Part shown: positions 1,057-9,893 of the stretch, one piece after another
Numbering within the stretch: position 1 is the stretch's first letter
Layout: every line of letters begins with the position of its first letter
DNA from: a virus
Lineage: Duplodnaviria; Caudoviricetes
Reading direction: 5' to 3' (one strand)
Length of the DNA stretch: 25,752 nucleotides
IMG/VR virus record: IMGVR_UViG_3300031608_000040
Span: 1 to 25,752 of that record
Position numbers and translations under genes: made by a program
The notes under the pieces: generated by a model
The model's database searches: none
Told to the model about the DNA's origin: nothing
Seen by the model: the letters and a program-made list of their open reading frames with translations, nothing else

Positions 1057-1283
1057 TGCAAGTATTAAACGAGTCTTATACGATGCAAGAACAAATGATT
1101 AAAGCATGTCGTATGCATGCTGAAGGTGATCTAGAAAGAGCTAAAACTAATTTTATGGTTTATTTAAATAATCCTGTTGGCATTGGTGAACACAGCGATA
1201 TTGTAGAGGCTATGCAAAAAGAGCTTAGCACTATGGGTCATGCAAGTGAACGTCTTGAAATGTTAAGTAAGCATTTTGAATGA
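1056..1283 (+). CDS. small hypothetical protein of a type recalled from marine T4-like phages
   Basis: GGGGAG RBS; motif HAEG...VYLNNPVGIGEHSDIVEA. Confidence 0.75.
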   Translation: MQVLNESYTMQEQMIKACRMHAEGDLERAKTNFMVYLNNPVGIGEHSDIVEAMQKELSTMGHASERLEMLSKHFE

Positions 1284-1969
1284 AATATTTTATTGCTGCT
1301 CCATTTGGAAATTATATAAAACTATCAAATGCGATTAGCGTAACTGGAAGTTGGACTTATCAGAATCGTCCAGGACTATTTCCTCAGATCTTAAAAACAC
1401 TTCGTTATACTAAAGATGGATGGCGAAATAAAATAGGTCTGAGGAATGCTGGAATAAAAGAAGGATTAAAAAGATCTGGTCCTAATGATGTTTTAAGTTT
1501 AGCTGCGATAGATCATTGGGATTGGGTCAACATGGAAAGTGTTGTTCCAAGTACGACTTCTTTAGAAATTAATATTAGTTGTCCCAATTTGGATAAAGAT
1601 GTTGGAGCAGCTAGCTTACCAGGATTTAAATTCTGGCCAGTTGGTAAGCGAGAATGGTGTATTTGTAAAGTTCCTCCGACAGCGACAGAAAGTCTTATTG
1701 ATCAGATAGTTGACTTTGGATATAGTCAAATTCATGCTAGTAACACTTTATATTCTATTCATGGGGGACAGAGTGGAAAATTACTAATACCATACACAAA
1801 CCGAATTATTGAATACATCAAAACAAAATATCCTCATGTAACAATTATTGCTGGTGGTGGTGTGACTACAAAAAAAGATGCTGAAAATTATTTTAAACAC
1901 GGCGCTGATTATGTAAGTCTTGGATCAGTGTGTTTTACACCATGGAAAATAAAAAATATTTTAACTTAA
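1280..1969 (+). CDS. pyrD: dihydroorotate dehydrogenase-like FMN TIM-barrel (class 1, short)
   Basis: EINISCPN (catalytic Cys loop), KVPP, SNT, GGQSG, IIAGGGV, GADYVSLGS motifs. Confidence 0.8.
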   Translation: MKYFIAAPFGNYIKLSNAISVTGSWTYQNRPGLFPQILKTLRYTKDGWRNKIGLRNAGIKEGLKRSGPNDVLSLAAIDHWDWVNMESVVPSTTSLEINISCPNLDKDVGAASLPGFKFWPVGKREWCICKVPPTATESLIDQIVDFGYSQIHASNTLYSIHGGQSGKLLIPYTNRIIEYIKTKYPHVTIIAGGGVTTKKDAENYFKHGADYVSLGSVCFTPWKIKNILT

Positions 1970-1986
1970 AACACCTGGCTTTCCTG

Positions 1987-1994
1987 TATAAATA
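1987..1994 (+). promoter_or_regulatory. T4-type late promoter TATAAATA
   Basis: Exact consensus in the intergenic gap 37 nt before the AsnRS-like gene; gp33 is present in the window. Confidence 0.75.
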
Positions 1995-2031
1995 ATGTCA
2001 ATTGAACACTACACACTGAGAGGAAATATTC

Positions 2032-2856
2032 GTGACACAATTGATTGATCCACAAAAATTTACAAAAGCCGTTGACCTTTTAAGGTCATTTTTTTTAAAC
2101 AGAGGCTTTCATGAAGTACATACACAAAACCGTTTAAGCATTTTAGCAGCGTGCGAAGATCCAGAAAACGTTGCAACATATAACTATGAAGGTCAAGTTT
2201 GGCCTCTTCCGCAGACTGGTCAGATGTGGTTGGAATATGAATTATTAACTCGCCCCTCTTCGAAGGGGTTTTTTTGTATCTCAACTTCTTACAGACAAGA
2301 ACCGAATGCAATTCCAGGCAGACATGACACGATTTTCCCGATGTTTGAATTCGAAATGCCAGGAGATATTAATGATCTCAGAGTAATGGAAAGGCAATTG
2401 TGTGCCCATCTAGGATTCGATGATTTAACAGAAAAAACATACAGAGAGTGGCAACAACATTATGGCTTAAGTGCTACAACTGAATTAGATGCACAGCATG
2501 AACTAGCTATGCAAGCTGGTTTTAATAGCTGTATGATTACAGACTTTCCAGAATTCACAAGTCCATTTTGGAATATGGCAAGAAATGAAGATGGCACGAG
2601 TAAGAAAATTGATGTTATTCTTGGAGGTATGGAAACAATTGGTAGTGCAGAACGTAGCACTGATAAAGACCAAATGCGTGACACATTCCATACAATTTCA
2701 GATGGTGAATATGCTGGCTTGATTAGTAGCCTATTCGGAAAAGATAGAGTAGAAGCTGAATTAGAAAAATTCTTAGAGTTTGATTTCTTTCCAAGAGTTG
2801 GAGGAGGAATTGGTATGACGCGCATGATTAGTGCGCTGGATACTCTTAAGAAATAA
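2032..2856 (+). CDS. class IIb aaRS (Asn/Asp/Lys family) catalytic domain only, no N-terminal anticodon-binding OB fold
   Basis: Motif 1 LRSFFLNRGFHEVHT, LPQTGQMWLE, motif 2 SYRQEP..GRH..FPMFEFE, ETIGSAER, motif 3 GGGIGMTRM; GAGAGG RBS, GTG start; 274 aa. Confidence 0.88.
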   Translation: MTQLIDPQKFTKAVDLLRSFFLNRGFHEVHTQNRLSILAACEDPENVATYNYEGQVWPLPQTGQMWLEYELLTRPSSKGFFCISTSYRQEPNAIPGRHDTIFPMFEFEMPGDINDLRVMERQLCAHLGFDDLTEKTYREWQQHYGLSATTELDAQHELAMQAGFNSCMITDFPEFTSPFWNMARNEDGTSKKIDVILGGMETIGSAERSTDKDQMRDTFHTISDGEYAGLISSLFGKDRVEAELEKFLEFDFFPRVGGGIGMTRMISALDTLKK

Positions 2857-2862
2857 GAATAA

Positions 2863-2971
2863 TCCGAGGTGGTGGAATGGTAGACACGCCGTACTGTTTA
2901 TACGGTGAATCAAATATACCCGCAAAAGTATATTTATATTCGTGAAGGTTCGAATCCTTCCCTCGGAGCCA
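2863..2971 (+). tRNA. non-canonical tRNA-Asn(GUU), 109 nt, with 38-nt variable arm
   Basis: TCCGAGG/CCTCGGA acceptor, G73, CCA; anticodon stem CCGTA/TACGG with loop CTGTTTA; T-arm GAAGG-TTCGAAT-CCTTC; variable region 2906-2943. Confidence 0.9.
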
Positions 2972-3011
2972 ATTATATATACAATAGAAGGATATATTAT
3001 AGGAGAAGTGA

Positions 3012-3203
3012 ATGAGTAAAATTATCGAGTTTCCTCAAACATCAGAATTGGATAAACAATTTATGACAATAGAATCACAACAGCAGGTAATTAGAGATCA
3101 AGCAGCACTAATCAAACAGCTTGAAGATGACAAAAAAGCAAAAGCTGAACTTCGTGAGGAAGGCGGCCAAATTAAAGGCGAAGCAGTCTTTCTAAACGAG
3201 TAA
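3012..3203 (+). CDS. hypothetical coiled-coil protein, 63 aa
   Basis: AGGAG RBS; heptad-like Q/L/E-rich sequence. Confidence 0.7.
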   Translation: MSKIIEFPQTSELDKQFMTIESQQQVIRDQAALIKQLEDDKKAKAELREEGGQIKGEAVFLNE

Positions 3204-3206
3204 ACA

Positions 3207-3214
3207 TATAAATA
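3207..3214 (+). promoter_or_regulatory. T4-type late promoter TATAAATA
   Basis: Exact consensus, intergenic, upstream of the lipase gene. Confidence 0.75.
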
Positions 3215-3247
3215 ATATTATCTAAAAGAATACAAGGTAATACTATT

Positions 3248-4015
3248 ATGGCACAACCAATAAATCAATTAAGCTTTAAAGCCAGAAGCCTCTTGTTTGC
3301 TCAACTATCAGCAATTGCGTACTCCGATCTTAAAGAAGCTAAGACCGCAGCACGAAGACTTGAATTCACTACAGTTGAATTTTATGATGTCAATGGCGCA
3401 CAGGCATACAGATTTATGAATAAGTATGATTGTATTATCACATGCAGAGGAACTCAGCCAACTGAGTTTAACGATATTAAAGCTGATTTGCAATCAATTC
3501 CAGTAATGGCAGAAACAGTATCAAGAGTTCATAAAGGGTTTAAGGCCGAGGTCGATGAACTTTGGCCAGCTATATGTGAAGATCTAGATAGAAAGCAAAA
3601 TAACAAAAAAACACTTTGGTTTTGCGGACATTCTCTCGGTGCTGGTATGGCAACAATCATGTCGTCACGATGCTTACATAATATATTTTTAAAAAATCCG
3701 GTTGAATTGTATACGTTCGGTTCTCCTCGTGTAGGCTTTAAGAAATACTGCAAATCTCTTGGAGTAATTCATCACCGTTTCGTAAATAATAACGATGTTG
3801 TCACTCGCGTGCCCTTAGTAATGATGGGTTATAGACATCACGGAACAGAACATTATATGGATTCCAATGGAGAATTCACAAATGTGTCTGGGATAAAAAG
3901 ATTTTGGGATAGATTAAAAGGCATGGCTGCCGGTATTATGAAATTAAAAATAGATAATTTTAGTGATCATAGTATGGATTGTTACATAGAGAATATAAAA
4001 AATATGAAAGAATAG
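3248..4015 (+). CDS. class 3 lipase (alpha/beta hydrolase)
   Basis: CRGT oxyanion motif, GHSLG nucleophile elbow, YTFGSPRVG, NNNDVVTRVP, C-terminal DH(SM). Confidence 0.92.
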   Translation: MAQPINQLSFKARSLLFAQLSAIAYSDLKEAKTAARRLEFTTVEFYDVNGAQAYRFMNKYDCIITCRGTQPTEFNDIKADLQSIPVMAETVSRVHKGFKAEVDELWPAICEDLDRKQNNKKTLWFCGHSLGAGMATIMSSRCLHNIFLKNPVELYTFGSPRVGFKKYCKSLGVIHHRFVNNNDVVTRVPLVMMGYRHHGTEHYMDSNGEFTNVSGIKRFWDRLKGMAAGIMKLKIDNFSDHSMDCYIENIKNMKE

Positions 4016-6378: not shown

Positions 6379-6461
6379 CTGTAACAAATATATTACACTT
6401 TAAATTAATGCGCTTAACTGCGCATTTTTTGTTGTACATTCTCTCCATATTGTAGTATAAA
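6378..6461 (+). repeat. regulatory cassette copy 1: palindrome + terminator hairpin + early promoter
   Basis: TGTAAC-N6-ATTACA (6380-6397); AATGCGC/GCGCATT hairpin with T tract (6407-6430); TGTACA-17-TATAAA (6433-6461). Confidence 0.85.
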
Positions 6462-6484
6462 GGTACCATGATAAGGAGATCATA

Positions 6485-6658
6485 ATGCAAGAATATCGTG
6501 AAATTTCTAAGATGCTTCGTCAGTTAATTCGGCATACAAATTCGCCTACTTCACCTATTCACGCAGAGAGCATCCGCGCCATAGCGGAATTCTGTGAGGA
6601 TAAGGCTGACGATATCGAATTGGATATGATTGTAGAAATGCAAAGGAATGCAGTATGA
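6485..6658 (+). CDS. hypothetical protein, 57 aa (not in ORF track)
   Basis: AAGGAG RBS right after promoter; MQEYREISKMLRQLIRHTNSP...; ATGA coupling. Confidence 0.75.
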   Translation: MQEYREISKMLRQLIRHTNSPTSPIHAESIRAIAEFCEDKADDIELDMIVEMQRNAV

Positions 6659-7293
6659 TTTATCTCTCCTATCAAAAGTCAGTTGTAGTTGATCTCAAAG
6701 GTAAAGGTTGGGATGATGATACTATTATGAAGTTTCTTGACTATGTAAATAAGAAAGAAACTTTGATTAAAACTGGTCGTAAGAACGGTAAATATTCTCG
6801 TGACTCAGACAAATCAAAAGTTTATAGTGCCGAGTTTAAGTACGAACGTACTTATGGTCAGGGTAAAAAGTTTAAAAATCTTGAAGAAGCTCAAAAATAT
6901 TGTGACAAAGTTTTAGCTTCAAAGACTTGGAAAAAAATATCAACTGCCGGTGTAAGAAATATTGCTTTGGCTGAAATGTCTGGTAGCAGAACAGCTGGTC
7001 GGGCATGGGATCATAATATCGATCTTAATCGTAGAAGCGGTTTAAATCAATATGTTCTTCTTCATGAGATGGCTCATAGCGCAGGCAATATGCACCATGA
7101 TGTACGCTTTCGTATTACTCTTCTTAAATTGGTTTCTCGTTTTATGAGTAGCGAAAATGCAAACTATCTCAAAGGTTGCTTCAAAGCAAAGAAGTTGAAA
7201 GTTACCGAGTCATCGAATATCAAATCTCCAGAAGTCTGGAAAAAAGGATACGACAGATTAGCAGCTGCTCGTAAAGAAAGAATGCCATCATGA
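6655..7293 (+). CDS. HEXXH zinc metallohydrolase (Rv0185/TIGR04338-like)
   Basis: RDSDKSKVYSAE motif and LLHEMAH....HHD..F. Confidence 0.75.
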   Translation: MIYLSYQKSVVVDLKGKGWDDDTIMKFLDYVNKKETLIKTGRKNGKYSRDSDKSKVYSAEFKYERTYGQGKKFKNLEEAQKYCDKVLASKTWKKISTAGVRNIALAEMSGSRTAGRAWDHNIDLNRRSGLNQYVLLHEMAHSAGNMHHDVRFRITLLKLVSRFMSSENANYLKGCFKAKKLKVTESSNIKSPEVWKKGYDRLAAARKERMPS

Positions 7294-7749: not shown

Positions 7750-7844
7750 GCTGTAACATTTTTATCACACTTCTATCTAATATTAAATTAATGCGCTTTA
7801 CGGCGCATTTTTTGTTGTACATTCCATTAAAAACATTGTACAAA
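7750..7844 (+). repeat. regulatory cassette copy 2: palindrome + terminator hairpin + early promoter
   Basis: TGTAAC-N6-ATCACA (7752-7769); AATGCGC/GCGCATT hairpin with T tract (7790-7813); TGTACA-17-TACAAA (7816-7844). Confidence 0.85.
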
Positions 7845-7867
7845 GGTATTATCAAATGGAGATAAAC

Positions 7868-8080
7868 ATGACATACTCAATTTTAAATCAAAACCAAACT
7901 TCACTTTCCGACTTCGATACCATTCCTCAAATCATCTCTCATATCAAATCACTAAATCTTCCATCATCCGAACAATATATGATTTTTCCATCACATAATC
8001 AAATAACTTCTACATTCTTTCTCTTAACACTAAAACAACTTATTAAAACATTCAAAAATACTCCACACGAATTTAATTAA
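7868..8080 (+). CDS. guanine-depleted hypothetical protein, 70 aa
   Basis: GGAGA RBS 7858-7862 favours ATG 7868 over 7856; first gene after cassette 2. Confidence 0.6.
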   Translation: MTYSILNQNQTSLSDFDTIPQIISHIKSLNLPSSEQYMIFPSHNQITSTFFLLTLKQLIKTFKNTPHEFN

Positions 8081-8086
8081 AAATAT

Positions 8087-8133
8087 TATAATATATCGAC
8101 GATAACACACAATATTATCGTCGATATATTATA
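8087..8133. repeat. perfect 19-bp inverted repeat with 9-nt loop
   Basis: TATAATATATCGACGATAA / TTATCGTCGATATATTATA, intergenic. Confidence 0.95.
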
Positions 8134-8156
8134 CAACGAAACAAAGGAGAAACTAA

Positions 8157-8357
8157 ATGAAATCTTTTACTTTTCAACCTAATCCAACCTTTCAATTTTC
8201 ACTTCTTCCTATCTTCACTGATGGATTAGAAGTTAACTACACAATCAATCCTGATAACACTGTTACTTTTTCTTCAAACAATGAGGATGCCCTTCAAGAA
8301 TGCTGGGAACAACTATACGACGATCCTTACGATCCTTTTGACCTTATCGAGGTATAA
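8157..8357 (+). CDS. acidic hypothetical protein, 66 aa
   Basis: AAGGAG RBS. Confidence 0.75.
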   Translation: MKSFTFQPNPTFQFSLLPIFTDGLEVNYTINPDNTVTFSSNNEDALQECWEQLYDDPYDPFDLIEV

Positions 8358-9374: not shown

Positions 9375-9893
9375 ATGGAAGATTGCAAAACATTCGCAAA
9401 AGCATTTTCATTTGCAGAACGTGCTCACGCTAATCAAAAACGTAAGTATACAGATGAGAAATATTTTTCGCATTGTGTAGCAGTTTCTGATATGATCGAA
9501 GAGTACTTGGATACACACGTGGTTGATGTCTCAACCACTGTGGCGATGTCTGTGGCTGTGCTGCACGATGTTGTTGAAGATACGTCATTTGATCACATGG
9601 ACATCAGAGAGCGGTTTTCAGATGAGATTGCAATGGGTGTATGGTTTCTTACCGATACTGAATCGTTTGTTGGCAATCGTAAACTTCGGAAAAAGCTTGA
9701 TCGTGATCGTTTAGCAAATGCACCAGAGTGGGTAAGATTGATCAAGAAATTTGATATCGAGCATAATGCTAAAAGTATCAAAAAGCACGATCCTAAGTTT
9801 TTGAAAATCTTTCAACAAGAAACCGATGAGTTGCTTGAAGCTATGAACATGCATGATGGCATTTTAAAGGAGAAAATTAATGGATCAGCCTAA
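9375..9893 (+). CDS. HD-domain (p)ppGpp hydrolase-like protein (Mesh1/small alarmone hydrolase)
   Basis: A..FA..AH..QKRK....Y..H...V and AVLHDVVEDT motifs; no synthetase domain. Confidence 0.88.
   Translation: MEDCKTFAKAFSFAERAHANQKRKYTDEKYFSHCVAVSDMIEEYLDTHVVDVSTTVAMSVAVLHDVVEDTSFDHMDIRERFSDEIAMGVWFLTDTESFVGNRKLRKKLDRDRLANAPEWVRLIKKFDIEHNAKSIKKHDPKFLKIFQQETDELLEAMNMHDGILKEKINGSA

Follow-up and report, generated by a model that had tools for sequence, protein, structure and literature searches.

Why would a phage gene be written almost without guanine? The question is raised by the window (the whole analyzed stretch of 25,752 nt), a fragment of a marine T4-like phage as judged by a gp32 match, with gp32 of the nearest named relatives being 53–59% identical. 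Its 70-aa gene at positions 7868–8080 (+ strand), assigned here to family A, contains after the ATG (7871–8080) only 5 G, along with 54 C, 83 A, and 68 T. The preliminary description of this DNA placed these G's at 7910, 7916, 7970, 7981, and 8069, each in a codon that cannot do without it; a recount returned the same positions (codons GAC, GAT, GAA, ATG, and GAA) and confirmed the absence of Gly, Ala, Val, Arg, Cys, and Trp from the encoded protein, as well as 0 G in 8160–8219 vs. 14 G in 6661–6720. All numbers given there for the G depletion proved exact.

G depletion in the gene and its homologs

A sliding count of G across the window yielded a mean of 40.3 per 210 nt, compared with 5 in the gene (binomial P ~1e-14), and a lowest 210-nt value of 18 outside this region. 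Since C is enriched in the gene (54/210, P 3e-4), AT richness is not the cause, as originally argued, and an assembly artefact is excluded because a second, separate contig (L214) carries the gene without a single difference. The family A gene is the sole outlier among 227 ORFs in carrier G001 (1.4% G vs. 20.4 ± 3.0) and among 130 ORFs in carrier G002.

Overlapping searches located family A relatives in 8, 12, and 27 loci (one false match included; L035 was dropped as an AT-rich false match), representing 12 protein clusters with 54–97% identity. No cluster contains Gly, Cys, or Trp, and Arg occurs solely in one N-terminal extension. The homologs keep the G depletion: members down to 54% identity have 0–5 G after the ATG, with none at all in the member in L222. 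Codons with an optional G account for 7/601 in family A vs. 327/1315 in 30 genes of the window, and G-requiring residues for 45/1040 vs. 1666/3834, in counts that omit duplicates and the partial or mis-started members L034, L223, L226, and L238–L240. The frame 7868–8080 is a genuine protein-coding gene under purifying selection, with pN/pS of 0.15–0.50 in 11/11 family pairs and with variable columns distributed 41/25/61 (of 71) over the three codon positions, third positions being the most variable. Thus, the strand-specific, selected avoidance of G in an early gene, proposed from the window alone, is upheld by both the family members and the codon counts.

AlphaFold predicts for this protein a compact alpha/beta fold (beta-beta-alpha-beta-beta-alpha-alpha, pLDDT 85), and it is striking in itself that a folded protein is encoded almost entirely by G-less codons. 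Sequence and fold searches (Pfam, PHROG, Foldseek) gave no hint of its function: there was no Pfam or PHROG family match, no Foldseek match at E 0.001, and nothing usable in the fold search, where the best Z was 4.6 and the APOBEC3H rows (E 0.06) were taken as chance. A tblastn search of 50,697 phage records returned no match, HMMER over 1.84 billion representatives returned two matches (both family A members), and an Atlas search gave scores of at most 0.82 and no family. In the RNA runs checked for the gene all shares were <0.1; one contig from an RNA library spans 7881–8060 with 7 differences, which is no demonstration of transcription.

Cassette layout and mobility

The gene is the cargo of a compact unit on the + strand. 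A terminator-like stem-loop with a T tract (7790–7813), apparently closing off upstream transcription, forms the front of the cassette and is followed by a predicted early sigma70-type promoter (TGTACA, 17 nt, TACAAA; 7816–7844) and a Shine-Dalgarno (SD) sequence GGAG (7858–7861). The same layout precedes other family members as well as ordinary genes, and in the window the unit is 77% identical to a cassette front at 6400–6487 that precedes ordinary genes. Past the stop codon lies a perfect 19-bp inverted repeat (hairpin, 8087–8133), kept in L216 and L217 with a compensatory pair change and absent from most carriers, and then a second SD sequence GGAG (8146–8149) serving the next gene.

Family A is a mobile accessory promoter-plus-gene cassette. 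The promoter and gene are found together in unrelated surroundings in L008 and L015, and the gene is missing from the same site in L003, L004, and G028, the latter being syntenic on both sides. Both hallmarks of the PeSL cassettes of T4-type phages are present, i.e., a stem-loop, a predicted sigma70-like promoter, and an SD sequence before an accessory gene, and gain, loss, or movement of that gene between units. The likeness to the published cassettes (PMC2839356) extends to a single small accessory gene shuffled between sites; the difference is that the parts of that account available to us do not mention avoidance of a base or motif in the cargo gene.

The same observations bear on the suggestion, made in the preliminary description, that the region is a promoter-coupled unwinding or origin element. 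A C-rich, G-poor strand followed by a strong hairpin would suit an origin, an unwinding element, or a Rho-loading site. Nevertheless, this suggestion is disfavoured because the frame is under purifying selection and the gene changes location and is absent from this position in close relatives; moreover, the hairpin is missing in most carriers. A T4-type R-loop origin is a conserved non-coding unwinding element, and the coding selection and the absence from close relatives do not fit it. A mutational artefact would be expected to replace G by A, as in G-to-A hypermutation, whereas here it is C that was gained. We consider a DNA element or a mutational artefact hardly credible.

Some other genes of these phages were recorded in passing. 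A heme oxygenase is paired with a ferredoxin-dependent bilin reductase in two carriers (L040:16214-17384 of G001 and L008:82-1375), and the window itself encodes at 1280–4015 dihydroorotate-dehydrogenase-like, class II tRNA-synthetase-like, and lipase genes (Pfam matches on the G002 counterparts).

Further G-poor families and the context of residual G

The gene behind the second SD sequence (8157–8357, + strand; family B) encodes a 66-aa acidic protein, and its codons 2–21 are free of G, with 0/27 optional G codons. Where family A is missing, this gene follows the promoter immediately. Because the context rule described below does not hold in family B, it may be a weaker or a different case. 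Its protein contains 12 Asp/Glu and 1 Lys, with only four related clusters, and one could speculate that it acts as a DNA mimic.

Two more families came from a scan of six hydroxymethylase contigs, fetched regardless of their G content. One of the six (G032) contained two further G-poor genes, both with a promoter and an SD sequence of their own, arranged as one-gene cassettes directly upstream of DNA polymerase: family C (L276:5640-5852; 26 protein clusters, a predicted helical fold, nothing usable in a fold search) and family D (L276:5921-6103; 38 loci). Profile alignment found no relationship of family A with either C or D (probability 0.7% and 9.9%, respectively). The dCMP hydroxymethylase gp42 is present in 14 of the 18 longer family D records searched (of 38 loci), records that were reached via a gp42 contig and are located close to gp42. 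The first G codon in families B, C, and D is codon 22, 28, and mostly 30, respectively, and later codons are less G-free. A further family is probably represented by a GTG-start ORF of an alpha-GT phage (L181:372-557), which lies 2.4 kb upstream of gp42, is preceded by a promoter and an SD sequence, and has 3 G in its first 120 nt.

In seven complete marine T4-like genomes that lack gp42, none of 1,442 SD-bearing ORFs had ≤9% G, and no such gene was present in the hydroxymethylase phages G023, G028–G031, T4, RB69, and phiAS4. The difference between 1/6 hydroxymethylase contigs and 0/7 controls is not significant, and the hosts differ; a promoter-anchored test in the control genomes involved just 10 promoters, too few for use. 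At ≤9% G there were also ORFs in G023 (4, three inspected), G030 (1), T4 (1), and, apart from the gene itself, G001 (1), which were classed by eye as shadow ORFs and left out of the count.

A further feature of families A, C, and D is the base that precedes a forced G. In family A this base is C or G in 14/18 distinct states, compared with 66/284 before other codons (p 4e-6) and ~19% in ordinary genes; the corresponding values are 10/12 vs. 13/107 in family C and 12/26 vs. 39/214 in family D, all of them for states that are related by descent and hence not fully independent. Across all families, G itself occupies this position in 13 distinct states before a forced G vs. 2 elsewhere. Depletion of AG+TG is 32-, 23-, and 6-fold in families A, C, and D, whereas that of CG+GG is 6.3-, 1.4-, and 2.3-fold, with CG in family C at background (3.48 vs. 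3.33 per 100 nt). In the gene of the window four of the five G's are preceded by C, and a single AG/TG is left where shuffling of the family's own codons gives 4.2 (P 0.002); the same shuffle in the other tested members gave P from <0.001 to 0.23. Thus, the motif mainly avoided is AG/TG on the coding strand, i.e., CT/CA on the template, with template CG and CC better tolerated; GA is the commonest residual G context in family A (49 cases), and the SD sequence and the ATG carry unavoidable AG/TG. Avoidance of UV dimers was rejected, as AA (template TT) is not depleted.

This rule bears directly on several explanations in which the messenger is what matters. A gene without G could be made under scarcity of GTP or in the presence of a terminating GTP analogue such as the ddhGTP of viperin, and the very low total G of family A (none after the ATG in L222) would suit it. 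The HD-domain gene noted earlier as a ppGpp hydrolase 1.3 kb downstream does exist (9375–9893, Pfam HD_4, E 7.6e-10). GTP limitation is disfavoured, however, because optional G's were added before forced ones, raising the number of G, and because no match to the HD gene lies beside the cassette in L008 and L015; in addition, family C shows CG at its background frequency and the HD gene itself is 23% G. This makes it highly improbable. Selection for an unstructured, rapidly translated mRNA agrees with a predicted folding energy of -7.1 kcal/mol, compared with -46.5 ± 8.1 for 23 window genes. On the other hand, openness of the start region is ordinary (0.57 vs. 0.49 ± 0.10), avoidance of structure does not predict retention of CG/GG with loss of AG/UG, and giving up at least six amino acids is a high cost, all of which renders this explanation very improbable.

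An RNA target deserves more weight, since the coding-strand and template-strand readings are indistinguishable by sequence: AG/UG sites in mRNA may be cleaved or modified by a host toxin that these messages would escape. The G-directed RNA cleavage initially proposed would need precisely this AG/UG specificity. Antitoxin-like proteins would be fitting cargo for small accessory one-gene cassettes, yet a two-base RNA motif would strike the SD sequence too, the link to hydroxymethylase phages described below would be left unexplained, and GA, the motif of the RNA ADP-ribosyltransferase CmdT, is the very context that most often survives in family A. Altogether, we regard an RNA target as rather improbable.

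Probable cytosine modification and the template strand

A different line of evidence comes from the carriers. G001, at 83% completeness, has a dCMP hydroxymethylase of the T4 gp42 type (E 5.5e-75), in which the catalytic Cys and Asp align, as well as a separate ThyX, a dCMP deaminase, and nucleotide-sugar enzymes. A gp42-type match was found in 4/19 family A carrier records, the 15 records with no match being 6–44% complete and eight further metagenome contigs with the gene (two >150 kb) lying outside this count; in G017 the gp42-type gene lies 1.0 kb downstream of the family A gene. The hydroxymethylase region lies outside the window, and in G002, the closest long relative, the polymerase region is missing altogether. 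A complete phage with gp32 71% identical to that of the window (G023) encodes the hydroxymethylase and has no family A gene. Because relatives carry this enzyme, we infer cytosine modification in the phage of the window as well. The suggestion that the gene avoids modified C on its template, one of several offered at the outset, gains support from the carrier hydroxymethylase and from the context rule, while the modification itself is deduced from relatives.

Across 84 loci, the position behind gp42 holds an alpha-GT homolog in 33 and phrog_13881 in 31, never both. An alpha-GT homolog is present in carriers of families C, D, and E, and the family A carriers G001, G004, and G017 have phrog_13881 in its place, which suggests an alternative modifier, i.e., a candidate hmC-modifying enzyme. 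In G001, phrog_13881 (L042:13955-14935) follows gp42 and the dCMP deaminase, and it also occurs in Aeromonas phage phiAS4. Just upstream of gp42 in G001 (L042:10627-12799) are DAHP/Kdo-synthase-like, cytidylyltransferase, cupin, and second nucleotidyltransferase genes, possibly providing an unusual sugar donor for DNA modification.

A coding gene under AG/TG-specific selection against G, the mobility of its cassette, a hydroxymethylase in several carriers, and recurrence in unrelated families are what has to be explained. We favour avoidance of modified C on the template strand, in whichever form, with a probability of about 0.7. Its counter-defence version, to which we give an even chance, holds that sugar-modified C made by the phage itself is kept off the template strand, leaving the gene transcribable under attack. 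The CT/CA sites of the template likely carry the sugar-modified cytosine of the phage, whose sugar addition would favour CA/CT above CG/CC. According to the passages available, T4 alpha-GT modifies one of two adjacent hmC and skips the other; sparing of CG by a sugar transferase was not documented in the literature as far as it was accessible. The modified base would then be excised by a Brig1-like host enzyme. Modified C is removed by Brig1 and Brig3, and the resulting abasic sites are proposed, in the parts of these reports consulted, to impede transcription and cause misincorporation of A (PMC11078745; 10.64898/2026.02.25.707755). The more lesions the template has, the more transcription would be blocked or miscoded, so a short one-gene transcript with 0–3 such sites in its reading frame, vs. 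~28 in an ordinary gene of the same size, may still yield protein, and that protein would counter the defence. The patchy presence of the gene points to a host-dependent value and hence to counter-defence. In its most extended form, which we put forward tentatively and at somewhat less than even odds, these are short emergency genes, of at least three independent origins, in phages with sugar-modified cytosine, with a template free of modifiable CA/CT, for counter-defence proteins made while a modified-base glycosylase destroys the DNA.

A position-independent lesion does not explain the 5' bias of families B, C, and D. The main rival, therefore, is a slowing of the host RNA polymerase by the phage's bulky modified C with no host attack involved, because a G-free 5' end fits pausing before ribosome coupling, where slowing would be worst, better than fixed lesions; genes would avoid modified C to be expressed first. 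This alternative shares the context-rule and hydroxymethylase evidence. Nevertheless, ordinary genes behind the same type of promoter have normal G (a median of 15 AG/TG in the first 120 nt), and the gene is dispensable in the hydroxymethylase phages G023 and G028 and has no counterpart in T4, so that we regard it as unlikely.

The G avoidance of the gene is real, selected, and recurrent, and what is new here is the rule on AG/TG, the connection with the hydroxymethylase, and two further families; no description of such G-free genes was found in the accessible literature that was covered. If the template reading is true, a counter-defence can operate by omitting the targeted base from the strand that is read, protecting a gene rather than a genome, a principle that did not turn up in the literature covered. 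Composition alone could then find inhibitors of base-excision defence, none of which is named in the literature passages at hand, and the avoided motif would reveal the sequence context of DNA modification in uncultured phages.

One of the nearest known settings is the arms race over modified cytosine in T-even phages (gp42, alpha-GT, Brig1/Brig3, IPI), with which our carriers share a gp42-type enzyme and, in families C, D, and E, an alpha-GT homolog; lesions that block transcription are proposed there too, in the portions of that work available. The counter-measures described in those portions are loss of a GT, a second GT, other chemistry, and pre-packaged inhibitors (PMC11078745, PMC13216743, 10.64898/2026.02.25.707755, 10.1101/2025.10.29.685425). 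A gene with a target-free template is not among them, within the same excerpts. Restriction-site avoidance is likewise a removal of target sites by selection; it strips them from phage DNA genome-wide and symmetrically on both strands, whereas here one strand of single genes is affected. Interferase-escaping mRNAs are comparable in another respect: ACA-less mRNAs escape MazF and the GCU-less ghoT mRNA escapes MqsR, so that avoidance of a motif on a single strand keeps one gene expressed under attack. In the phage genes analyzed here, by contrast, what has been purged is a two-base motif and, almost completely, one base, at a cost in amino acids, and the avoidance probably operates at the DNA template.
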